Source of the DNA: Escherichia phage vB_EcoS_PNS1
Sequence record: NC_073063.1
Length of the DNA: 43,945 bases
Strand: one strand, 5' to 3'
Part shown: one piece after another, positions 498-43,945 of the stretch
Layout of the letters: each line of letters starts with the position of its first letter
How positions within the stretch are numbered: position 1 is the first letter of the stretch
The notes under the pieces: model-generated
The model's input: only the letters and a program-made list of their open reading frames with translations
Databases searched by the model: none
Told to the model about the DNA's origin: nothing
Position numbers and translations under genes: made by a program

Positions 498-3137
498 ATG
501 GCAGATCAGGCAGCGGGCATCACGCTCAAGGCGGACGTCGCGCAAATTAAAACGGCTAATACTGTGCTGGACACATTTGCGCAGAAATCCGAGAACACAG
601 AACAGAAAGTAAAGAAATTAAACGACACACTTGGCAAGTCGAAAAAGGTTACTGGCGACGCTGCTGGCGGAATGGAAAAGTTAGCGACTGAATCGCAGCG
701 CGCCGCCGACGGCATGACGAAACAGGAGCGACTCGCCAGCCGATTAGGCATGTCGACCAAAAACCTGGGATTCGCATCGCGGAACGCCGCATTCCAGTTA
801 CAGGATATCGCGGTAACGCTTGAGATGGGTATGCCGGTGCATCGAGTCATGCTTCAGCAGCTACCGCAGCTTACTGGGGCGTTTGGCGGGTTGGGGAATA
901 CGCTGCGTTATGTCGTCGGCACACTCGGCCCGTTAGGGATCGGCATCGCTGCATTAACGGCAACGATGGGCGTAGGCGTGGCGATTATGTCCCGCGCGGA
1001 AAACCAAGTGGCGGCGCTTAACAAGACGCTGGCGCTGTCCGGTAATATTTCTGGCCTAACAGCTAACCAGATACTGGTGCTATCCGAGAACGCCGAGCGG
1101 ATGGGCGGATCATTCCGCAAGACGCGTGACACAATTCAGTCACTGGCGGCGGCTGGTGTGAAAGCTGGTGCGGACTTCGGCGCACTGGCGAAGGTAGTGA
1201 ATGACTTCTCGAAGGTATCCAGCCAGCCGATCGAAGATGTGGTCGCGGCGGTGGCGAAGCTGTCAACCGACCCGGTAGGAGGCTTGCGCGCACTGGCGGA
1301 TAAGTATCACGTCGTAAACGAAGCGCAGATCCAGCAGGTGCAGTCGTTGGTGGATATGGGCCGCGAGACAGACGCAGTTGCGTTGGCTAACAAAACTGCC
1401 GCCGCGTCGTTCACCACTATGACCAACGATATTAAGGCCAACATGGGCACGCTTGAGCGGTCGATGAACGTCGTCACATCGGCAGCTAAATCCATGTGGG
1501 ATGCCATCCTGGATGTGGGCCGCGCGCAGTCCTCCAATGAGTCCGAGATGAAAGCGCGCGAATCACTACAGCGCATGACCACTGCTTACTATGCCGAGAT
1601 GAAAGCGGTAAACGCTGCCGGTGGGGTAATGACTGAAGCGCAGAAAGCACGTATTAACATGCTTTACAGCGAACTGGTCGCCCAGGAAAAAGTGGTGGCG
1701 TCGCTCACCCTGCGTAACCGTGCCGAGCGAGACAACGCCCGCGCCGCAGACGAATCCGCAAAGGCGAACGAGGAGGCCAACCGCACCGCCCGTGACCGAG
1801 CCGCGTTTGAAAAGGAGTACGCAACTAACGCTAAAAAACGCGCCGACGAGATCGCCCGCCTCAATTTGCTGAATAAGCGCGGCGTTATTGATGAGAAAGA
1901 GCTTGCCGAGGCGGTGAAGCAGGTAAACGAGCGCTACAAAGACCCCGCCCCGAAGAAGGCCGCGGCTGTTCGCGTGGATGCCGGTATGAAAATGCTGGAA
2001 GTCGCGCGGAGCGAACTGGCCCAGCTTCGAGAATCCGGCAAGCAGATCGAAGCCAACGCGTCTACGCAGACCCGCACGCAACGCGCTCAAGCGGCCTTAA
2101 ACAAGCTGATCGCCGACAATGAGCAGTTAATTGCTGCGAGCAAAGAAAGAGCGCTAACGGCAGCCGAAAAGCAGCAGATGGCCGAATTCGGACGCGTGAA
2201 GGAAGTGCGCGAGCAGATCGTCGAAGAAGCTAAATTGCTGGACGCGAAAGAGAAGCAGGTTAAGGCGCACGCGCAGATCGATGCCTTCGTTAAGAACCAG
2301 AACGCTGAACTAAAAGCCACCGCCGCGGGCTATGCGCTTTCCACTCGAGAAGCGGCAAACCTGCGTGAAGAATTGCAGCTAATCGACCGCCTGAAGCGTG
2401 TTGGCGCTAACGATACCGATATTGACAAGGCGGTGTCTAAGTTGCGGGAAGTGCAGGAGGCGCAGACCGGTGCTAACGCCTCGCTATGGGATGGCTTCAG
2501 CCGCGGGCTTAAGGATAGCGTGGATGAAATGGGTAACGGATATACGCAGATGGCGTCGCTCACGAAATTTACATTCAGCGCTATGCAAGACTCGATGAAC
2601 GAGTTTTTCGAGACGGGCAAGATTAACGCGAAGGATATGGTCAAATCCATCCTGAGCGAGTTAATCAAGCTGGCTACCTCGCAGGCGTTCAAGTCCATCG
2701 TTGGCGCTTTCGGTGGTGGCGGCAAAAACGGATTGTTCGGCGCTATCTTCTCTGGCCTCACTAAGAATGCGGACGGAGGAGCGTACGCAGGAGGAAATCT
2801 AGCGGCCTATTCGGGTCAGGTGGTAAGCCAGCCTACCTTTTTCAGTTATGGCGTCCAGGCGTTCGCTAAGGGCGCAGGATTGATGGGTGAGGCTGGACCC
2901 GAGGCCATCATGCCACTGAAGCGCGGGCCGGACGGGAAACTGGGCGTTGCCGCGTCTGGCGCAGGCGGTGGTATGGTCGTGACGACTAACGTTTACACGG
3001 GGGCCGGTAAAACGGATACCAGTGTCAGCGGGCCAGACCCCCGTACCGCGCAGGCGTTCGGCAAGCAAATCACCGAAGCGGTGAAGGCTGAGATCGTGAA
3101 AGCGACGAAACCGGGTGGAGTACTGTACAAACGATGA
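498..3137 (+). CDS. tail tape measure protein
   Basis: 879 aa, Ala/Gln/Lys-rich helical protein with Gly-rich C-terminus; sits between chaperone G/G-T and distal tail genes; RBS aaggggg before ATG. Confidence 0.9.
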   Translation: MADQAAGITLKADVAQIKTANTVLDTFAQKSENTEQKVKKLNDTLGKSKKVTGDAAGGMEKLATESQRAADGMTKQERLASRLGMSTKNLGFASRNAAFQLQDIAVTLEMGMPVHRVMLQQLPQLTGAFGGLGNTLRYVVGTLGPLGIGIAALTATMGVGVAIMSRAENQVAALNKTLALSGNISGLTANQILVLSENAERMGGSFRKTRDTIQSLAAAGVKAGADFGALAKVVNDFSKVSSQPIEDVVAAVAKLSTDPVGGLRALADKYHVVNEAQIQQVQSLVDMGRETDAVALANKTAAASFTTMTNDIKANMGTLERSMNVVTSAAKSMWDAILDVGRAQSSNESEMKARESLQRMTTAYYAEMKAVNAAGGVMTEAQKARINMLYSELVAQEKVVASLTLRNRAERDNARAADESAKANEEANRTARDRAAFEKEYATNAKKRADEIARLNLLNKRGVIDEKELAEAVKQVNERYKDPAPKKAAAVRVDAGMKMLEVARSELAQLRESGKQIEANASTQTRTQRAQAALNKLIADNEQLIAASKERALTAAEKQQMAEFGRVKEVREQIVEEAKLLDAKEKQVKAHAQIDAFVKNQNAELKATAAGYALSTREAANLREELQLIDRLKRVGANDTDIDKAVSKLREVQEAQTGANASLWDGFSRGLKDSVDEMGNGYTQMASLTKFTFSAMQDSMNEFFETGKINAKDMVKSILSELIKLATSQAFKSIVGAFGGGGKNGLFGAIFSGLTKNADGGAYAGGNLAAYSGQVVSQPTFFSYGVQAFAKGAGLMGEAGPEAIMPLKRGPDGKLGVAASGAGGGMVVTTNVYTGAGKTDTSVSGPDPRTAQAFGKQITEAVKAEIVKATKPGGVLYKR

Positions 3138-3144
3138 TAAAATG

Positions 3145-3173
3145 GCCCCCACAACCATCGTGGGGGCTTTTCT
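3145..3173 (+). terminator. hairpin plus T-run after tape measure gene (probable attenuator)
   Basis: Stem gcccccac/gtgggggc with 7-nt loop followed by ttttct, immediately before ATG at 3174. Confidence 0.45.
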
Positions 3174-3773
3174 ATGTCACAAGGTACAATCACACTAACG
3201 AACGGAAGTAAGACCGTAACGGGCGCTGGAACGGCGTTCCTTAGCGAGATCGGGAAGGTCCGCGTATTCGCCCGCATCGACGGCAACGACTACACCGGCA
3301 AAATAGCCGCATTCAACTCTGACACTGAAATCACCCTGGCGGATAACTGGGCCGGTCCAACTAAATCAGGTGCGGCATATGAGCTAATCGAAGCACACGA
3401 CCCGCGATCAAACGAATGGCCCTATTACTGGCACATGCAATTGCAGGGCGGCGGCGACGTGCAGTTGGCTTTCCGGTCGGAGGAATTGCAATTCGGTAAC
3501 GGTTACGGTCAGAACATCGCGGACGGCCCGAACGCCGAAACGAAACAGTTCCCCGTGCAATTCATAGGGCTTACTACTGACAAGTGGTGCAATCCCAAAC
3601 TGGTTTACAACTTCCTTCGCGGGCACTTCGTAAAGCCGTTTGTCGTCACCGCGCCGGATGGCGAAACCGGTTTATTCGTGGTCGAGCGTTCGAGCTTGTC
3701 GTACACAGACAACGGGCACTACACGGCAACGGTATCCGCAACCCTTAAAACTGCTATTGGATTCGTAAGATGA
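3174..3773 (+). CDS. minor/distal tail protein (lambda gpM position)
   Basis: First gene after tape measure; N-terminus shares a motif with the tail fiber at 10079. Confidence 0.6.
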   Translation: MSQGTITLTNGSKTVTGAGTAFLSEIGKVRVFARIDGNDYTGKIAAFNSDTEITLADNWAGPTKSGAAYELIEAHDPRSNEWPYYWHMQLQGGGDVQLAFRSEELQFGNGYGQNIADGPNAETKQFPVQFIGLTTDKWCNPKLVYNFLRGHFVKPFVVTAPDGETGLFVVERSSLSYTDNGHYTATVSATLKTAIGFVR

Positions 3774-9998: not shown

Positions 9999-10078
9999 GG
10001 TATAATCTCCGGTATTGGGTTGAGTTTTAGTATTACACCGCTCAATCAAGAATGCAACCAATTTAAGAGGATTTAGCT

Positions 10079-12234: not shown

Positions 12235-12726
12235 TTATTTCAGTGCGCCAGTCACCAGTGTTTTTTCCATGTTACGGAAGTCTTCCGGCGTAATAAGTAT
12301 TTTGGACCCATCTTCGCCGGTGAGCACGACCATAGGCTGGACGTCCTGGTCTACGACGCCGAAATTGGCGGCTTTGACAGTCTTGCCCGCGGAAGAATGC
12401 AAGCCTTTTAGGCTACCGTATTGCGCTGCCGTTGTATCGATCTGAATATCGTCATGCACTGTCATGTAAGACTCGCCCAGCAAGGCCGCATACGCTACCA
12501 GGTCGACGATGTTATCTTCCTGGTGCTTACGGTGCTGGCGCACCAGCTTCAGGCAGATCAGGAATGTCCAGGCTTCTTGCTCGGTAAGATCGCGCCCGGT
12601 AAGCGCGTTAAACACGGCGGCGATCTGTTTAGCGCTGCGTTCTTCTTTCGCGTTGTCATAGCCGTTTTCTTTCCCGCGCTGTTCCATAGTGGTGGCGGCG
12701 TTTTTGCAGTATTCGTATGCTTTCAT
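12235..12726 (-). CDS. hypothetical protein
   Basis: ATG at 12726 with AAGGA RBS; 163 aa; the ORF-track start at 12885 has no RBS and overlaps the upstream gene. Confidence 0.5.
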   Translation of the reverse strand: MKAYEYCKNAATTMEQRGKENGYDNAKEERSAKQIAAVFNALTGRDLTEQEAWTFLICLKLVRQHRKHQEDNIVDLVAYAALLGESYMTVHDDIQIDTTAAQYGSLKGLHSSAGKTVKAANFGVVDQDVQPMVVLTGEDGSKILITPEDFRNMEKTLVTGALK

Positions 12727-12778
12727 TATGTTTTCCTTTTTAGTGGGGGCGGTATTGCCCCCGACGTGATTAAGATAC

Positions 12779-12800
12779 TGCAACCAACCTATTGGTTGCA
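12779..12800. promoter_or_regulatory. palindromic operator-like site TGCAACCAA-N4-TTGGTTGCA
   Basis: Inverted repeat with 9-bp arms, upstream of the minus-strand gene starting at 12726. Confidence 0.4.
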
Positions 12801-13259
12801 AGTATATTTTGCAACGTTTATTGCGTAAATTTTCGGGACCAGATCGCCGCACGCCAGACGAATTGCCGCGATGTTCTTCTCGCAATCTTCAATGATGACC
12901 AGTTCCGACACGTCAGCATAGCAGACCATTTTGAACACGGCGCACGCTTTAAACTCTGGCGGCGGGGTGTCGTCCAGCATGTGGCGCATAAACAACCGCC
13001 CTGTCGGGAATACTTCCAGTTGCTCGGCGGTGGTGTCCCAACATTCTAGCTGCCGGTTTGTCAGATACGCGATCTCGAAGCCTTGCTCTTTGTACATGCG
13101 CAACAGCGGCAGCATATCCATGTTCAGGTCTTCGCGGACGTGCGCCTTGTGCCACTTCGCCCAAAAGGTGGATTTAGTTTTTATCCCCGGCACCAGGTCG
13201 GCGCGCGCATCGCTTGATCCATTAATAACGCCATCCAGGTCACAAATCAGTAATTTCAT
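12789..13259 (-). CDS. HAD-superfamily phosphatase / 5-prime nucleotidase-like
   Basis: N-terminal ICDLDGVI matches HAD motif I (DxDG); GAGGA RBS; translationally coupled to upstream gene. Confidence 0.7.
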   Translation of the reverse strand: MKLLICDLDGVINGSSDARADLVPGIKTKSTFWAKWHKAHVREDLNMDMLPLLRMYKEQGFEIAYLTNRQLECWDTTAEQLEVFPTGRLFMRHMLDDTPPPEFKACAVFKMVCYADVSELVIIEDCEKNIAAIRLACGDLVPKIYAINVAKYTCNQ

Positions 13260-14397: not shown

Positions 14398-14478
14398 CGT
14401 GTTGTCTCCAGGTATTAAAAAAGGCGTCCAAACCGGACACCCTTAAGATAATGCAACCAATATTATTATGCAACCAAT

Positions 14479-17355: not shown

Positions 17356-17395
17356 CTCTAAAATCCTCGATATGGCTAACCGGCACACTATACCG

Positions 17396-17674
17396 CTACG
17401 CGACCAATTCAGCAACCAATAAATCACAGTCGGCTATGTTGTCGATAACGCGAACGTCAGCACCGCGGCGGGCCATTCTCTCATGCTCACGTACCTGGTG
17501 CGGCTTCGGTTTTCCTCCTTGGCGCTTCACTTCGACGAACACTATTTTGCCGTTGATGATAATAATCAGGTCGGGCGCACCCGCGCGCCCCTCCCATGCC
17601 AGTTTTCGGCAGAATCCGCCGACCTCTTTCACCCGTTTCATCAGGTGACTTTGAATCTTGCCTTCTGGTGTCAT
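17396..17674 (-). CDS. VRR-NUC domain nuclease
   Basis: 92 aa from ATG 17674; D...EVK PD-(D/E)XK core in a VRR-NUC-sized protein; AAGGA RBS. Confidence 0.75.
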   Translation of the reverse strand: MTPEGKIQSHLMKRVKEVGGFCRKLAWEGRAGAPDLIIIINGKIVFVEVKRQGGKPKPHQVREHERMARRGADVRVIDNIADCDLLVAELVA

Positions 17675-21632: not shown

Positions 21633-21722
21633 TTTCCAATTCCTCATTTTCACATGTATCGGGGTTATTGGAAGCCACCCCGTTCGGCTTGGTTGCTAAT
21701 CTACTTGGTTGCGCCTAAGCGG

Positions 21723-21965
21723 TCAAGCATTTTCATTAAAAAGATTCCGGGTCACGTAGTTGGTGGCGTTCTCGATCCAGCTTAACGGCGGGCGTTCGAT
21801 GTTCTTTTCCACCCAATCGACGGCAACTTCGCTATAGCCGTCATCCAGCCAGCGGGTCGGATGGCGAATCATCCACGCCACCATTAACACGCCTTGCACG
21901 CAATGCAGGATAAAGCCCAGCGCGCCGATCAAAAACATCAATAAGATTGCGAATACTTTATTCAT
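21723..21965 (-). CDS. small membrane protein
   Basis: 80 aa with hydrophobic N-terminal helix (FAILLMFLIGALGFIL); GAGGA RBS. Confidence 0.4.
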   Translation of the reverse strand: MNKVFAILLMFLIGALGFILHCVQGVLMVAWMIRHPTRWLDDGYSEVAVDWVEKNIERPPLSWIENATNYVTRNLFNENA

Positions 21966-24553: not shown

Positions 24554-24582
24554 ATATTAGATTGGTTGCAGAAGGGAGTCAA
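24554..24582 (-). promoter_or_regulatory. sigma70-like early promoter (minus strand)
   Basis: Minus strand reads TTGACT, 17-bp spacer containing CTGCAACCAAT, then TAATAT. Confidence 0.5.
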
Positions 24583-24590
24583 CAACTAAT

Positions 24591-24627
24591 TTAAAAAAAA
24601 AAGCGCCGAAGCAAAATGCGACGGCGC
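24591..24627 (-). terminator. hairpin plus T10 run (minus strand) upstream of the early promoter
   Basis: Inverted repeat gcgccg/cggcgc followed on the minus strand by ten T. Confidence 0.4.
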
Positions 24628-24758
24628 TAACCAATAAGAGACAATGAGACGGGAGTATTATTACACGCGTTCGCGCCCGTTTCAATATTCCAAAGGAGTT
24701 GACACCCCGCGGTTTTAGGTGTAGTTTCGTTGGTCATTAACCAACCGGAGACAGAATA

Positions 24759-25088
24759 ATGAATATCAACGACGCAATCGAAATGTTAACTAAAACTGTT
24801 TGCAGTGAGACTAGCCGGTCCTGGGCGTATACCGATGCCGTGGGTGCGGTGCTATTTGAAATCGAACGTCTGCGACTTACCGAAAAAGCATTGCGCGCGA
24901 AGCTGGAATTACTCAACGGTACGGCAGCCAGCAAGCTGCAAAAACACAATGAAGAAATGGAAGAATACAAAAAACAGGTTATCCGTCTACGTGAGGAAGG
25001 TAAATCCTGGGCCATGATCGCCGAGCTAACCGGAATTAATCAGAGCACAGTGCGCTCATGGGTACGCAATAATAAAACTTCTAAGTAA
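24759..25088 (+). CDS. HTH DNA-binding protein, candidate transcriptional regulator
   Basis: 109 aa; C-terminal SWAMIAELTGINQSTVRSWVRN helix-turn-helix; first plus-strand gene after the divergent region. Confidence 0.6.
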   Translation: MNINDAIEMLTKTVCSETSRSWAYTDAVGAVLFEIERLRLTEKALRAKLELLNGTAASKLQKHNEEMEEYKKQVIRLREEGKSWAMIAELTGINQSTVRSWVRNNKTSK

Positions 25089-25098
25089 GGCCACGGCA

Positions 25099-27363
25099 AT
25101 GAGCTTAATTAAATTCGCTGTAACACGACCCGCTAAAAAAGGCGAAAAAGCCAGGGCGGAAAACTTCCAGATGACCACCGATGAATTTTTCGAATTTATC
25201 AATGACGCGAAAGAAATCTCCTCGGTGCATATCAACAAGACGGAAGATAAAGCCGAGTATGCGCGCCGCAAGCGTAAGGCCGATGGCATCGTGGCGTATA
25301 CCAGTGACGGCTTACGCCGCAAGACCAGTGCGGTGGACCGCTCGATCCTGTTCTTCGATATTGACCGCACCGACACCCGCACCTTACGCCGCTGCCGTAA
25401 GGCTTTCATCGACGCGGGGCTGGAGCACGTATTCCACACCACTACGGGCGACCGCCACCCGCTGAAGGGCGGAACGCGTTGCGCCCGTTTCCTGGTGCTC
25501 ACTGACAAGCCTGTCCCGGCGGAAGACCTGGGCCGTGTCCAGTATGCGCTATTACACCAACTGGGTCTGTCAGATGTGGACTTCGACGATTGCACGAAAG
25601 ACACAAACCGCCTGATGTACCTGCCGCACCAGCAATCGGTTATTAAGTGCCACTATGGCAAACGTGCCAGTGTCCGTCGTCTGCTTCGCCTGGCGGATAA
25701 GCTGGGGGTGGAGAAGGAGGAAGTCCGCCGCGAACTGACCAAGGGCGACGACGCCGTGGCAGACGGCATTCTGGACTGGTGCTTCCAGGCGGGATTCGAG
25801 GAGTTATCTTCCGGGCGGGGCTATGAAGTGCCGTGCCCTAACGAACACCTGCACAGCGGCGAAGGGTCCACCGCCATAATGGTCAAGGATGGCGAGATCC
25901 GTTTCAAGTGTATGCACACCGGCAACGAGTGCTGCTCGGAGCTGAACAGACACCAGCACCTGGCGCTCCGTCTTATCGGTATCCCGGACCACCTGAACGT
26001 CGAGCCGCACAACATGTCACGTAAGCAAATCGCCGCCATCCTGCCAGGTCTGGACGACGAGGAAGTCGAATCATTATATGATCATATTGTTGATGCGGTA
26101 GGCGACGGCGAAGAATACGGCGTGTGCACCGATTCGGATCTGGATAACGAGCCGGTCGCACTGTTCAGCAAGCACGACCCGATCATCGAAGGTCTGATTA
26201 ACTTTAAATCGACCTGGTATCTCGCCGGTGAGTCGAACATTGGTAAGTCTTTCTATGTGCTGGGGCAAATGGCTTCAGTATCTGCCGGTATTCCGTTTGG
26301 TGGGGCGAAGGTCGTCCAGTGCCACAACTTCTATTTCGATGCGGAAGGTGGTGAAGCCTCTAACCAGCGTAAAGAAGCATTGCAGATTAAATACGAGCAC
26401 GACCTGGATAAGCTGCACATTATCGATCTGCAATCACGCGGCTGGGATATCACCAGCAAATCAGGCTTGCGCGAAGTTATCAGCTTTATCAACCGCACCG
26501 CTAACGGCGAACCGGTTGGCCTGGTGGCGTTCGACTCACTCAACCAGACTGTTGCGTTGCGGTCCGCGGATGCTAAACCGTTCGACGAGAACAACGCCAG
26601 CGATATGGGTGAAGTGGTCAAAGCGCTGAAGGCCATCGCGGAAAATACAGGTGGCAGTGCGGGCGTCATCCACCACCCGGCGAAGGGTGCAAACGGCAGC
26701 AGAACCCCACGCGGGTCCGGCGCGCTGCATGGTGCTGTCGATTCTGCGTTCTTCCTGGAACAGCCGGACGACAACCAGCCAGGCCAATTGAACCTGTATC
26801 ACGAAAAGGCACGTAACGGCATCAAGCAAGCGCCGCGAGGCTTCGTCCTGCTCAAGTGCAAGGTGAAGGTGGATCTCCGCAAGTCAGAAGCGTTCGCGTC
26901 GCACCAGTCCACCAGCACCGGGCCAGACTTCGGTGACGTGGTTGCCGGTTGGGACGTCAAGCCAATTGCATCCACGCCACGCGACGAGACTCTGTATCTC
27001 GTACCGGTCGCCCTGGCACCGTTCGCCATCGAACAGGCAAAGTCCGCTGGCAAGGCCGCAGTTAAGGAAGAGAACGCCGCAGGACCGCGCAATGAAAAAG
27101 AGAAAGTGCTCTATGCGGCGCTGGAAAAACTGATGGAAGATAACCCGGACAATACCGGATTCAGCAAATCGGCAATTGTCCGCCAGGCTGGACTGGCAAA
27201 AGGTGGAACATCGACGAAGGCAATCGACGATATGGTCGAGCGCGGCGTACTCGGTTTTTATACAGACCCACACACCGGAGCCATCTATGGGTCGTCGAAT
27301 ATCGTCATCAAAACGAATATACCCATCACGCTTTCGGCGACCGATGACGACCTGAAAGATTAA
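25099..27363 (+). CDS. primase/helicase-type replication initiator (RecA-fold ATPase domain)
   Basis: 754 aa; Walker A GESNIGKS, Walker B-like LVAFDSLNQ; central Cys/His cluster; iterons begin at its stop codon. Confidence 0.85.
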   Translation: MSLIKFAVTRPAKKGEKARAENFQMTTDEFFEFINDAKEISSVHINKTEDKAEYARRKRKADGIVAYTSDGLRRKTSAVDRSILFFDIDRTDTRTLRRCRKAFIDAGLEHVFHTTTGDRHPLKGGTRCARFLVLTDKPVPAEDLGRVQYALLHQLGLSDVDFDDCTKDTNRLMYLPHQQSVIKCHYGKRASVRRLLRLADKLGVEKEEVRRELTKGDDAVADGILDWCFQAGFEELSSGRGYEVPCPNEHLHSGEGSTAIMVKDGEIRFKCMHTGNECCSELNRHQHLALRLIGIPDHLNVEPHNMSRKQIAAILPGLDDEEVESLYDHIVDAVGDGEEYGVCTDSDLDNEPVALFSKHDPIIEGLINFKSTWYLAGESNIGKSFYVLGQMASVSAGIPFGGAKVVQCHNFYFDAEGGEASNQRKEALQIKYEHDLDKLHIIDLQSRGWDITSKSGLREVISFINRTANGEPVGLVAFDSLNQTVALRSADAKPFDENNASDMGEVVKALKAIAENTGGSAGVIHHPAKGANGSRTPRGSGALHGAVDSAFFLEQPDDNQPGQLNLYHEKARNGIKQAPRGFVLLKCKVKVDLRKSEAFASHQSTSTGPDFGDVVAGWDVKPIASTPRDETLYLVPVALAPFAIEQAKSAGKAAVKEENAAGPRNEKEKVLYAALEKLMEDNPDNTGFSKSAIVRQAGLAKGGTSTKAIDDMVERGVLGFYTDPHTGAIYGSSNIVIKTNIPITLSATDDDLKD

Positions 27364-27500
27364 TTTGTGCGCGCATTGGTTGCCGATATGGGAATTCCCA
27401 TATCGCTAAAAGATTAATTTGTGCGCGCATTGGTTGCCGATATGGGAATTCCCATATCGCTAAAAGATTAAATTCTGCGCGCATTGGTTGCCATTTAGGG
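27361..27500. repeat. tandem 54-bp iterons each with a 20-bp perfect palindrome; candidate replication origin
   Basis: Units at 27361-27414 and 27415-27468 are identical, third partial; palindrome GATATGGGAATTCCCATATC at 27385-27404 and 27439-27458; each unit carries ATTGGTTGCC. Confidence 0.8.
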
Positions 27501-27544
27501 TGTTTTTATCCGGTCGTATTGGTTGCCGTGTAGTGTAAATATAA

Positions 27545-27740
27545 TGAATAGTTATGCAGTTTTATTGCATAAAGTAAGCGGGACAGAAAGCGGGACAAAC
27601 AAGGGGCGGGACAAAGCGGGACAGCACCCCTGTCCCGCCCCGGATGACGCGGCCTGGCGAGGAGCGGGACAGGCGGGACAAACCCCAGTCTTTCAGACTA
27701 GACGGGGGGTCTGTCACCCCCCTCGTCTGAGACTGCATAA
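27545..27740. repeat. GCGGGACA repeat array with palindrome GGGACAGCACCCCTGTCCC and terminal hairpin; copy B
   Basis: About 190 bp, about 85 percent identical by eye to the 3-prime part of 113-432; palindrome at 27618-27636. Confidence 0.8.
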
Positions 27741-27894
27741 AATCCGGTATTGCAAAATACACGGCAGCATGTTGCGGATCGCGGTCGTCGCTGAACTAGG
27801 CAACCAATGCGAGATGCAGAACGGGGTGTGAAAAATGCAGTTTGCAGATTCAGCAGATAGCGATCAACTTTTTCATACGCGTGATTAATATTGG

Positions 27895-27923
27895 TTGCAT
27901 CCGCCCTGACACACTGCTATATT
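27895..27923 (+). promoter_or_regulatory. candidate promoter for the small-gene block
   Basis: TTGCAT, 17-bp spacer, TATATT; overlaps two ATTGGTTGCA motifs. Confidence 0.4.
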
Positions 27924-27950
27924 GGTTGCACACCAACAGGAGGGCGGAAC

Positions 27951-28130
27951 ATGAAAACCGAAATGGCTGATAAGCACGAAATCAAGATCGGCGATACGGT
28001 AGTCCACAACGGGGAGCTTCGCACTGTGTGCAAGCGAGCGTTTAGCATCGATGAATTTATGGGCCTGCTACTTTGGGGCGACAGCTATCGTTTAGGGTAT
28101 AAACTGGTTGAGAGGGTTACGGAACTATGA
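27951..28130 (+). CDS. hypothetical protein
   Basis: 59 aa from ATG 27951 with AGGAGG RBS. Confidence 0.5.
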   Translation: MKTEMADKHEIKIGDTVVHNGELRTVCKRAFSIDEFMGLLLWGDSYRLGYKLVERVTEL

Positions 28131-28462: not shown

Positions 28463-28732
28463 ATGAGCCGTAGGCGCGCTAAACAGCTTTCCTGGCATAT
28501 TCCACTGCATTGCCTACGCATATGGGCTAAGAATGCGGCTGAGGGCGATTCTGTGTTCTGGAGCTATCGCGACGATGTGAAGCCGTTGACGCAGACACGC
28601 TACTTGCACCAGTTCGCAGCAAAACACGATTTCAGGGTGCGGACTTCCTTGCAACCAATGGGAATCCGTATTACATTACGCCGGAAGCCCGCCGTTGAGC
28701 GGGTAGGCAAACACTGGAGACTGAGCAAATGA
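28463..28732 (+). CDS. hypothetical basic protein
   Basis: 89 aa, Arg/Lys-rich; AAGGGG RBS. Confidence 0.5.
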   Translation: MSRRRAKQLSWHIPLHCLRIWAKNAAEGDSVFWSYRDDVKPLTQTRYLHQFAAKHDFRVRTSLQPMGIRITLRRKPAVERVGKHWRLSK

Positions 28733-30717: not shown

Positions 30718-30779
30718 TGCTTGACTTGCAACCAACATAGACGCCATACTGCGACAAATCAACGAGAGGAGTAATCAAG

Positions 30780-30860
30780 ATGGCACGTAAAGATATTTGG
30801 GTATTAGCGATCTGGACCACCGCGGCTTTTATCGGCATGGTTATTTGCGAATTGAGATAG
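30780..30860 (+). CDS. candidate 26-aa hydrophobic peptide
   Basis: ATG 30780 with GAGAGGA RBS; MARKDIWVLAIWTTAAFIGMVICELR; TTGACT -35-like element at 30721. Confidence 0.25.
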   Translation: MARKDIWVLAIWTTAAFIGMVICELR

Positions 30861-30921
30861 CCCGCCGCCATACGGACCGTGGTATATTGTCCCCGGTCCA
30901 CTAATCAGGAATTAATTAAAT

Positions 30922-32064
30922 ATGCACCCGCAAACTAAAATTACCGATGAGCAATTGATCGCAGAAATTCAGGCAGGGACTACGGTTAAAGAGATTGCGA
31001 AGAAGTACGGCATTGCACTTCGAAATGTCTACATGCGCAAAGCCCGCCTATCAAAAAAGGGGATTGGTCATGGCAATGACGCCGTGATCCGTAAGCGCGT
31101 TGCCGATGGCTTTGGGGTTAAGCGCGTATCGGCCCTGGTGCGCGGCAATGGCGAAGAGGTCATGTCGTGGGTCATCACTGAGCAGGACAAGGAGCGCCAA
31201 CTCGAAGCAATGCGCGCTGTTGTCGAGGGTATGAACAGCGAAATCACACCGGCAGCGCCAGTAAAAGCCCCGCCAGTACCGATCCAGGCGCTCGACTTGC
31301 TCAACCTGTACACCGTGTCAGACTTCCACCTGGGCATGTTGGCATGGGGCGAGGAGACTGGCGAAGACTGGGATATGGCGATTGCCGAAGACCTGTTCTA
31401 CCGCTGGTTTGTCGAAGCCTTCGCACGCGCCCCGGACGCAGGCACTGCCGTAATTAATATCCTCGGTGATATGGCCCACTTTGATAGCCTCGATGCTGTC
31501 ACTCCGGCAAGTGGTCACATACTGGACGCCGACACCCGCTACCAGAAACTGGTCCGATACATGATTCGCATGGTGCGCAACGTCGTCGAACTGGCGCTGC
31601 AAAAACACCACAAAGTCAAACTGCTAATCGTCCAGGGAAATCATGACGAGTCGGGTATGATTTGGCTGGCTGAGATGTTCAATACTCTGTACGAGAACGA
31701 GCCGCGCGTCGATGTAGATACGTCCCCGGACGTCTACAAAATGGTGCAGCACGGTAAGACCACGCTATTCTTCCACCACGGGCACAAAGCGCGATTCGAT
31801 GCTATCGAGCAGGTTATGATCGCTAAATTCAGACAGGAGTTCGGGTCGAGCGAATACAGCTACGCGCACGTAGGCCATTTGCACCACCAGAAGATTGTCG
31901 AGTCTCGCAACATGATTGTTGAGCAGCACCGGACGCTCGCAGCGAAAGACGCCTACGCCAGTCGTGGCGGTTGGATGTCCGGTCGCAGCGCAAACGTCAT
32001 CACCTATAGCGCCAACTACGGCGAAGTAGCGCGCTTAACCATTAGCCCGGAAATGTTGAAGTAA
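30922..32064 (+). CDS. HTH-domain protein fused to calcineurin-like metallophosphoesterase
   Basis: 380 aa; N-terminal HTH (TVKEIAKKYGIALRNVYMRKAR); motifs DFH, GDMAHFD, GNHDE, HHGH. Confidence 0.7.
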   Translation: MHPQTKITDEQLIAEIQAGTTVKEIAKKYGIALRNVYMRKARLSKKGIGHGNDAVIRKRVADGFGVKRVSALVRGNGEEVMSWVITEQDKERQLEAMRAVVEGMNSEITPAAPVKAPPVPIQALDLLNLYTVSDFHLGMLAWGEETGEDWDMAIAEDLFYRWFVEAFARAPDAGTAVINILGDMAHFDSLDAVTPASGHILDADTRYQKLVRYMIRMVRNVVELALQKHHKVKLLIVQGNHDESGMIWLAEMFNTLYENEPRVDVDTSPDVYKMVQHGKTTLFFHHGHKARFDAIEQVMIAKFRQEFGSSEYSYAHVGHLHHQKIVESRNMIVEQHRTLAAKDAYASRGGWMSGRSANVITYSANYGEVARLTISPEMLK

Positions 32065-38316: not shown

Positions 38317-38388
38317 TTTGTTTTCCTTCATATCTCTGTTGGTGTGCAACCAATATAAAGCAACCAACATCCGCAACGCAAGCGAATT

Positions 38389-43931: not shown

Positions 43932-43945
43932 CGAAGCGGGACAGG

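Follow-up and report, generated by a model that had tools for sequence, protein, structure and literature searches.

A palindrome in Escherichia phage vB_EcoS_PNS1 as two copies of a recurrent word at a predicted internal promoter

INTRODUCTION

At positions 12779-12800 of the 43,945-nucleotide sequence of Escherichia phage vB_EcoS_PNS1 (NC_073063.1; the whole stretch, one strand read 5' to 3', is called the window below), two 9-bp arms form a perfect inverted repeat around a 4-nt centre. What is such a palindrome for? The initial annotation placed it in the leader of the gene downstream, beside a GC hairpin, and took its dyad symmetry as the geometry expected for a dimeric regulator. The inverted repeat is present as claimed. 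We argue that it represents two copies of an asymmetric 9-13 bp operator, at which a phage regulator would occlude RNA polymerase at an internal promoter; judging from the sequence, we give this explanation a little more than even weight.

The window is that of a Dhillonvirus, an HK578/SO-1-like E. coli siphophage: it is 88-93% identical to ~150 GenBank records (HK578, SO-1, SSL-2009a, SECphi18, and others) and shares the gene order of the Dhillonvirus records. Dhillonviruses are among the most often isolated E. coli siphophages and are used in defence-system and phage-therapy work; we found no published account of their transcription programme. The SECphi18, SO-1, and HK578 records annotate no integrase or immunity module. 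The genes around the palindrome all lie on the minus strand, where they belong to a long leftward operon for replication and nucleotide metabolism that originates at a divergent control region near 24586-24758.

RESULTS

The palindrome consists of two copies of an over-represented, asymmetric word

Read on the minus strand, the locus has the order ac-TTGCAA-ccaataggttggttgcag-TATCTT-aatcac-GUCGGGGGCAAUACCGCCCCCAC-uaaAAAGGAAaacauaAUG, with the following elements:

12779..12800, perfect palindrome TGCAACCAA-CCTA-TTGGTTGCA, two inverted motif copies with 9-bp arms and a 4-nt centre
12792..12800, minus strand, motif copy 1, minus-strand reading TGCAACCAA; shares bases with the -35 hexamer and with codons T-C-N-Q-stop of the phosphatase gene
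12779..12787, plus strand, motif copy 2, reading TTGGTTGCA on the minus strand; ends 1 nt short of the -10 hexamer
12796..12801, minus strand, predicted -35 TTGCAA, self-palindromic, with an 18-bp spacer to the -10
12772..12777, minus strand, predicted -10 TATCTT; TATAGT in most relatives, TATATT in the direct-repeat relatives
12743..12766, minus strand, GC-rich stem-loop GUCGGGGGCAAUACCGCCCCCAC, beginning at about +1 of the predicted transcript and followed by a ribosome-binding site (RBS) and no U-tract
12789..13259, minus strand, upstream gene, HAD-type phosphatase, annotated in relatives as polynucleotide kinase/phosphatase; TAG stop at 12791..12789, inside the palindrome centre
12235..12726, minus strand, downstream gene, DUF6378 protein of 163 amino acids (aa); ATG at 12726..12724, RBS AAGGAAAA at 12731-12739

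The arms had been described as the half-site of a recurrent motif, and this was borne out: the exact 9-mer occurs 11 times in the window, against 0.48 expected (maximum of 2 in 60 shuffles), which rules out a chance origin. Allowing up to one mismatch gave 22 matches against 11.7, and the 8-mer core has 21 copies. Among over-represented 8- to 10-mers, GCAACCAAT (15 copies versus 0.42 expected under an order-3 Markov model) shares the top place with the TGTCCCGC family, and in the L041 contig, at ~72% DNA identity, it is again the most enriched 9-mer (10 versus 0.16). The positions of the motif sites are kept in seven other Dhillonvirus-type genomes, SECphi18, SO-1, slur06, McMelon, rolling, and HK578 among them, while their flanks drift. 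In HK578, 12 of the 19 core copies are intergenic in a genome that is only 6.5% non-coding (P = 2e-10), and the "coding" copies mostly lie within ~80 nt of a gene's 3' end before the next gene, or under a short repeat-region gene. The conserved flank is one-sided, TGCAACCAA-T-a-T-a; what recurs is an asymmetric site with many intergenic copies. An inverted repeat of this size is, in itself, not rare: with perfect arms of at least 9 bp and a loop of 0-10, the window holds 16 nested repeats (~9 distinct), where dinucleotide-preserving shuffles averaged 2.35.

We then compared the arrangement of the copies. The arm centres of the palindrome are 13 bp apart, a dyad geometry, yet among the ~ten motif-bearing promoters described below this is the only close inverted pair, the others having direct or single copies. 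Spacings between paired copies were 9, 12, 13, 14, 16, 17, 23, and 31 bp, and orientation relative to the local coding strand was about evenly split. Free spacing together with even orientation points to a DNA-level rather than an RNA-level element and argues against a rigid dimer on a dyad.

Such freedom is also known from the host regulator CytR, which binds (G)TTGCA(TT) half-sites, direct or inverted, at variable spacing. A host factor reading the motif, with CytR as the nearest case, would account for the TTGCA within the motif as well as for its free orientation and spacing. However, the conserved extension is on the ACCAAT side and the base after TTGGTTGCA is variable; moreover, the octamer GTTGCATT occurs only twice in the window, and 9 of 10 sites have no CRP box (at least 8/10) within 100 bp. 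We regard a host reader as scarcely credible.

Two other candidates were dropped. A cos site or physical genome end was suggested by a note in the SECphi4 record, which states only that the ends are unknown. We also scanned IMG/VR for the palindrome beyond the genus and retrieved 13 contigs of 42-45 kb, the size of a Dhillonvirus genome, plus one 211-kb contig (L028). The L028 match (1117-1138), GCAACCAA-TGAT-TTGGTTGC followed by TTTTTTGTTTTT, is an ordinary hairpin-plus-T-run terminator and is probably a chance hit, chance alone predicting about this many matches. In phage T1, an outgroup from the sister family Drexlerviridae, GCAACCAA is not promoter-associated. T1 (L043) has a recurrent word of its own, AGCAATTCGTGCTAT, mostly after TTTT (3538, 4347, 4867, 6534, and 34905), these copies lying mostly at or between gene boundaries, and also AACCAGTCAGG, with 7-9 copies versus ~0.15 expected.

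The two copies coincide with elements of a predicted internal promoter

At the palindrome, TTGCAA (4/6), an 18-bp spacer, and TATCTT (4/6) make a sigma-70-type hexamer pair; in most relatives the -10 is TATAGT (5/6). Copy 1 contains the predicted -35, and copy 2 fills the spacer to 1 nt from the predicted -10 (12777..12772). The placement of the palindrome in a leader was thus not upheld, since its arms coincide with the predicted -35 and the -10-proximal spacer of a conserved sigma-70-like promoter; of the two structures, the GC hairpin alone falls within the predicted leader. The palindrome is 53-74 nt upstream of the DUF6378 ATG at 12726. The phosphatase gene ends in ACT TGC AAC CAA TAG, its last four codons and stop being overlapped by the right arm and centre; with the stop codon inside the 4-nt centre, one arm is coding. 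The predicted promoter scores under the threshold of our consensus scan, and two further features adjoin it:

12801..12829, minus strand, alternative promoter-like match TTTACG-17-TATACT from the consensus scan, abutting the palindrome; window-specific
12810..12818, plus strand, third, degenerate motif copy TGCAACGTT (7/9), inside the phosphatase gene and mostly kept in relatives

In relatives, the alternative promoter reads TTCACT or TTTACT, without the A at position 2.

Reading the other motif sites against -10-like hexamers gave ~ten predicted promoters that carry the motif:

14445..14477, minus strand, sister promoter of the same layout, TTGGTTGCA-N8-TTGGTTGCA-t-TATCTT; copy 1 is the -35 TTGCAT, with a 17-bp spacer
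10029..10061, minus strand, -35 TTGCAT from the motif at 10053-10061 and -10 AATACT (10029-10034), upstream of a cor-like gene on the minus strand
17387..17419, minus strand, TTGGTTGCT as -35, 17-bp spacer, -10 TATAGT (17387-17392)
21689..21726, minus strand, TTGACC-17-TAGATT promoter; one copy in the spacer 1 nt from the -10, a second starting 1 nt past the -10
24554..24582, minus strand, TTGACT-17-TAATAT, the presumably early promoter that reads leftward in the divergent control region; its spacer holds a copy (24562-24570) 2 nt short of the -10
27891..27930, plus strand, TTGGTTGCAT-17-TATA\|TTGGTTGCA; copy 1 is the -35 and copy 2 lies over the -10 and +1, upstream of the small gene 27951-28130
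28649..28677, plus strand, TTGCAACCAA as -35 TTGCAA, 17-bp spacer, -10 TACATT
30721..30750, plus strand, terminator, then TTGACT\|TGCAACCAA-N9-CATACT; a second copy at -10/+1 in relatives, degenerate in the window
38345..38367, minus strand, -10 TATATT (38357..38352) with one motif copy abutting it and another overlapping it, upstream of a minus-strand 104-aa gene

The copies fall into four recurring registers. In register (a), the -35 is the TTGCA(T) of TTGGTTGCA, at 16-17 bp from the -10 (motifs at 10053, 14469, 17411, and 27891). Copies in register (b) end 1-2 nt upstream of the -10 in either orientation (12779, 14452, 21705, 24562, and 38359, as well as in slur06 and L041), whereas those in register (c) lie over the -10 and +1 (21689, 27922, and 38345, and 30750 in relatives). 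In register (d), at 12792 and 28650, T+TGCAACCAA provides TTGCAA as the -35. The palindrome combines one copy in register (d) with one in register (b). The position of copy 2, adjoining the -10, has counterparts at the -10 hexamers at 14445-14450, 21698-21703, 24554-24559, and 38352-38357, and five other motif sites likewise have TTGCA(A/T) at a distance of 16-18 bp from a -10. Positions A2 and T6 of the -10-like hexamers at motif sites are conserved across genomes. The consensus scan picked up two of the motif promoters, and one, 24554..24582, is annotated as a promoter in the HK578 record, where only consensus promoters are annotated, all of them in the control region.

Side by side with these sites we noted several neighbouring features. 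Directly past the -10 of the sister promoter is a terminator-like hairpin with T6 (14417-14444, minus strand), whose sequence differs in L041; at 14417-14450, read-through RNA could form the full stem and stop, while transcripts from the 14445-14477 promoter would start inside the stem and escape. A second dyad, TTGGT-N5-ACCAA (24730-24746, 27922-27936, and 38339-38353), lies directly upstream of the RBS of three genes: a gene for a helix-turn-helix (HTH) protein, the small gene 27951-28130, and the minus-strand 104-aa gene. A complete motif copy is included in two of these dyads; the one at the HTH gene is at about +1 of a TTGACA-17-TAGTTT promoter, and the dyad type is absent from HK578. Within the control region, 24586-24685 (minus strand) holds a strong promoter-like site with an extended -10, TTGAAA-17-AATAAT after TG (10/12 matches), followed after ~65 nt by a GC hairpin with T10 (-16.2 kcal/mol, z = -4) and then the leftward TTGACT promoter. 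This element, conserved in 6/6 aligned genomes and matching no Rfam family, may specify a short non-coding RNA or represent an attenuated leader. Finally, an unannotated hydrophobic 27-codon open reading frame (ORF), MARKDIWVLAIWTTAAFIGMVICELR, with a good RBS, is located at 30780-30863 (plus strand), between the 30721-30750 promoter and the gene for a 380-aa HTH-metallophosphatase.

The registers bear on how the motif might be read. Copies lie on the spacer, the -10-proximal region, and the start site of promoters, some of them with near-consensus hexamers, and the simplest explanation would be an operator for a repressor that keeps RNA polymerase out. In L041, the leftward control-region promoter is TTGAC-GCAACCAA-C-GCAACCAA-TC-TAATAT, with copies filling its spacer, and another promoter, TTGACA-17-TATCTT, has a copy 1 nt from its -10; such near-consensus promoters need no activator, and a protein bound in the spacer would exclude polymerase.

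At copies that supply a weak -35, activation or a dual role would also be conceivable, and we keep positive control as the main rival. Here, a phage activator would recruit host RNA polymerase, or retarget it, to promoters with a poor -35 in the manner of T4 MotA boxes; this activator might also act, like phi29 p4, as a repressor of consensus-like promoters. The motif is at the -35 of six promoters, where TTGCA(A/T) matches TTGACA at 3-4 of 6 positions and is 16-18 bp from good -10s; in addition, the HTH of the 109-aa candidate regulator described below scores above the Pfam Sigma70_r4_2 threshold. However, copies are also found in the -10-proximal spacer, at -10/+1, and in near-consensus spacers, at which an activator has no task and would collide with polymerase; both orientations occur at one register, unlike MotA boxes, whose position and orientation do not vary. 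We consider positive control unlikely.

Alternatively, there might be no dedicated regulator at all, the motif being part of a lineage-specific promoter module that is read by host sigma-70 polymerase and spread by cassette duplication or recombination. The alignment of TTGCAA/TTGCAT with the -35 at six sites fits this proposal, as does McMelon, in which promoter plus hairpin acts as a cassette boundary (see below). Only 9-13 bp are shared, though, and the surrounding promoter sequences are unrelated, so the sites are not duplicated cassettes. The strictly conserved ACCAAT falls outside known polymerase contacts when a copy is in the spacer or at +1, and where a promoter has TTGACA in place, the copy in its spacer cannot serve as the -35. 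A module of this kind has, in our estimate, a rather small chance of being the answer. We also rejected an extracytoplasmic function (ECF)-type or -35-less promoter with the motif as an upstream element: no downstream element is conserved, and the forward orientation has no -35 at the right distance.

Some relatives keep both copies and their register but not the palindrome

To compare the locus, we used 20 related sequences, 15 IMG/VR contigs and 5 GenBank genomes. Both motif copies are invariant throughout; 17 of the 20 have the palindrome (two of these with a flipped centre), and the other three have a direct repeat. In this trio (slur06, McMelon, and contig L004), the locus reads TTGCAACCAA-TAA-TGCAACCAA-C-TATATT, the second copy being inverted yet still adjoining the -10, with 17 bp now separating -35 and -10. 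Relatives including slur05/06, McMelon, TH11/13, and JLBYU60 have the direct repeat TGCAACCAA-TAA-TGCAACCAA, its register to the -10 unchanged. Across GenBank, at least 109 records have the palindrome, 11-14 the direct repeat, and 7 a flipped 4-nt centre (CCTA for TAGG); the direct repeat is the form in roughly one relative in ten.

The -10 is TATAGT in most of the 20 sequences, TATATT in three, and TATCTT in the window only; positions T1, A2, T3, and T6 are fixed and positions 4-5 vary, which is the substitution pattern of a sigma-70 -10. At the lone position separating copy 2 from the -10, each of the four bases occurs among the relatives. An invariant motif and fixed -10 positions with a free base between them are what one would expect if motif and -10 hexamer were constrained separately. 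Contig L016 is without the promoter, which was lost along with the phosphatase gene; at 2485-3531 it has a single 348-aa ORF across the Dam-like and DUF6378 coding regions.

The direct-repeat relatives indicate that neither the palindrome hairpin nor the inverted geometry is required. With the lone inverted pair in the window, they count against the proposed dyad for a dimeric regulator. The broader claim of a protein-binding regulatory site fared better, in that the motif is over-represented, intergenic, and conserved in position; the palindromic geometry, from the same comparison, appears not to be its functional feature.

The palindrome is an unlikely RNA element, but a GC hairpin may open the transcript

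As RNA, the palindrome folds at -12.4 kcal/mol (z = -3.6), and the region, with an imperfect extension and the GC hairpin, at -28.6 kcal/mol. Could the palindrome then act as a hairpin, whether as an intrinsic terminator or attenuator, as a DNA cruciform, or as an element that governs RNA processing or stability where the phosphatase gene ends? Besides the folding energies, the terminator scan lists the palindrome on the plus strand, and the flipped centre in 7 records suggests a past hairpin-mediated inversion. However, the stable stem is not followed by a U-tract on the minus strand, which continues GUAUCUUAAUCAC; a T-rich tail is found only on the plus strand, which is antisense here. Pairing is not kept either: the direct-repeat variants cannot fold, yet retain both copies and the -10 in register, and the 9-mer copies elsewhere are not in hairpins. 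We judge a hairpin function of the palindrome highly improbable. No Rfam family matched anywhere in the window.

The GC hairpin beside the palindrome, in contrast, is real, as the initial annotation had it. Its stem (GGGGGC at 12745-12750 with GCCCCC at 12757-12762) starts ~6-7 nt past the -10 and folds at -14.6 kcal/mol (z = -3.5) in minus-strand RNA. The stem varies in relatives and still pairs, as GGGGGC/GCCCCC, GGGAGGC/GCCTCCC, or GGGGC/GCCCC. Transcription would start near 12765-12767 (minus strand) for the DUF6378 gene and the gene after it, which has a 191-aa product, and the mRNA would consequently begin with the GC stem-loop. Stem-loops at the 5' end of E. coli mRNAs shield them against RNase E, which drives 5'-end-dependent decay. 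By analogy, we infer that the GC hairpin is a stem-loop at the transcript 5' end that may protect against RNase E. It also seems to be a boundary for gene exchange: in McMelon (L022, 24438-24773), an extra 111-aa ORF is inserted downstream of the promoter, with copies of the hairpin plus RBS on both sides.

A coiled-coil/HTH protein is the best candidate reader of the motif

Which protein might bind the motif? The best candidate, on circumstantial grounds, is the following:

24759..25088, plus strand, candidate trans-acting factor of 109 aa, with a long helix and a C-terminal HTH; first gene of the rightward operon

This protein matched HTH_23 (29.7 bits) and Sigma70_r4_2 (27.8 bits), both above threshold, and its structural model (pLDDT 85.7) has a long helix at residues 26-79 followed by the C-terminal HTH. 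With this model, Foldseek matched nothing more specific than generic HTH folds (E above 0.5), and searching PDB by sequence returned nothing useful. In the phage collection, the protein matched Dhillonvirus-type records only; a wider protein search likewise found close relatives only, many of them on ~45-kb contigs. Its C-terminal 60 residues (47-106) are nearly invariant while the N-terminal 45 are hypervariable, and the HK578 version, 48% identical, keeps the HTH helices. The invariant HTH end matches the invariant motif. Both the recognition helix and the motif are invariant in everything retrieved, including the ~72% identical contigs, which makes their covariation uninformative. At the promoter of the 109-aa gene itself, a motif copy is present at +3..+12 in the distant contigs L040 and L041, and the window has a degenerate ACCAAC dyad. 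We also observed that residues 1-45 are replaced by unrelated sequence in several lineages and in HK578, which suggests diversifying pressure on the N-terminal surface; a host defence or a partner protein might be its source.

A 380-aa calcineurin-like phosphoesterase (30922-32064, plus strand), named "DNA repair exonuclease" in PHROG and annotated in SO-1 as a putative transcriptional regulator, is a possible second reader of the motif.

The HTH gene is directly upstream of the primase-helicase gene, which would fit a further alternative, a replication system. An initiator-like protein, either the HTH protein or the primase-helicase, would bind as monomers to direct repeats at an origin and as a dimer to the inverted repeat, modelled on plasmid Rep proteins, which do so. 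The origin-like repeat region just past the primase-helicase gene has 4-5 variant copies of the motif, GGCAACCAAT (27376-27527 and 27800), which are kept in HK578 and L041. Most motif copies, however, are spread over ~ten promoter regions rather than clustered, the palindrome is at neither candidate gene's promoter, and the iteron-like distribution belongs to the other word, TGTCCCGC (21 copies, two clusters). We consider a replication role very unlikely.

The TGTCCCGC clusters deserve description in their own right. Counting both orientations, 118-375 (with 43936-43943) and 27578-27680 hold 17 of the 21 copies, versus 1.9 expected. One cluster is upstream of the tape-measure gene and the other just after the primase-helicase gene, and they correspond to "region A" and "region B", annotated in SO-1 as repeat regions related to each other; the layout is like origin iterons with a second cis site, as in P4 ori/crr. 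In addition, a 54-bp tandem repeat (27355-27492; 2.6 copies, 97% matches) starts 9 nt before the stop of the primase-helicase gene (25099-27363). Each of its copies has the variant motif GGCAACCAAT, and two contain a 22-bp perfect palindrome, CGATATGGGAATTCCCATATCG, with a central EcoRI site.

DISCUSSION

We propose that the element TGCAACCAA(T-a-T-a) marks ~ten predicted sigma-70-type promoters in Dhillonvirus genomes, and that the palindrome would be the place where two of its copies happen to face each other on one of them. A phage-encoded DNA-binding protein, for which the 109-aa coiled-coil/HTH protein of 24759-25088 is the best candidate, would occupy each copy independently, or as a flexibly linked dimer, and block RNA polymerase; the outcome would be repression or feedback control of phage sigma-70 promoters.

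Several points weigh against this proposal. The -35 at the palindrome is weak (TTGCAA, 4/6, with an 18-bp spacer), and the -10 of the window, TATCTT, is weaker than that of its relatives. Because several copies supply the -35, polymerase or an activator could read the motif instead of a repressor, and a pure repressor on every promoter, including the structural-gene one, needs another explanation for late expression. The loss of the promoter in L016 shows that it is dispensable. The assignment of the 109-aa protein as binder is circumstantial: its gene is in every motif-bearing genome, so a contrast of presence and absence is uninformative, and the 380-aa protein has an N-terminal HTH-like segment, TVKEIAKKYGIALRNVYMRKARL, recognised by eye only. 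A search of the accessible literature found no transcription start site, footprint, or expression data for any Dhillonvirus; searches with the motif strings returned unrelated primer matches only, and the Dhillonvirus papers have no mention of promoters or motifs.

In a bolder version, one small phage protein, combining a coiled coil with a sigma-region-4-like HTH, its DNA-reading end invariant and its N-terminus hypervariable, would read a single asymmetric word set at three fixed registers in essentially every promoter of a virulent siphophage, and would be a genome-wide switch that takes over the -35 contact at weak promoters and shuts strong ones; possibly, the same word in the origin-like repeats by the primase-helicase gene would couple transcription to replication. 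We see this as a long shot; such control logic is not known to have been described for T1-related small siphophages. A regulator site on a phage promoter is otherwise an ordinary type of element and would be unsurprising unless the dual activator/repressor role or the replication coupling held. The element itself is real and conserved, and apparently undescribed. One word on ~ten predicted promoters offers a promoter map, a testable regulon, and a candidate regulator, as well as an engineering handle for tunable phage promoters or for switching off expression.

How does the motif compare with known systems? Lambda CI/Cro operators share with it an HTH candidate and sites on the -35, spacer, and -10, often two per promoter, but here the dyad symmetry is not conserved and the spacing of copies is not fixed. 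As a flexible repressor of the LacI family, CytR sets a precedent for the reading of both a palindrome and direct repeats by one protein, a likeness in working rather than membership, as the motif has the conserved ACCAAT and no flanking CRP sites. T4 MotA boxes and phi29 p4 sites are, similarly, phage words in host-type promoters, and the motif could likewise sort temporal class; MotA boxes, however, stand in for the -35, always near -30 and in a single orientation, whereas the motif occupies at least three registers in both orientations. The PeSL cassettes of T4-type phages also have a sigma-70 promoter followed by a stem-loop at a gene boundary, and the McMelon ORF insertion between stem-loop copies is as expected if such a module mediates gene shuffling. 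PeSLs are longer conserved cassettes, though, while here only the 9-13 bp word and, separately, a local hairpin are conserved; the clear promoter-plus-hairpin layout is found only at the palindrome and at 14417-14477, with one hairpin-bounded insertion (McMelon) and no genome-wide pattern.

The motif lacks defining features of lambda-type dyad operators, MotA boxes, oriented stoperators, CytR/CRP sites, and intrinsic terminators. The sites of mycobacteriophage L5 gp71 are 13 bp long and are read by a temperate immunity repressor; the stoperators among them are oriented to transcription and block elongation. The operators of L5/Bxb1 gp71 resemble the motif in being short, asymmetric, multi-copy sites in intergenic regions and promoters, apparently read copy by copy. 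They differ in that the motif is 9-13 bp long, has no orientation bias, and lies on core promoter elements, in a phage group whose records examined here annotate no integrase or immunity module. Overall, as a working model drawn by analogy, the motif system most resembles multi-copy asymmetric operators such as those of L5 gp71.

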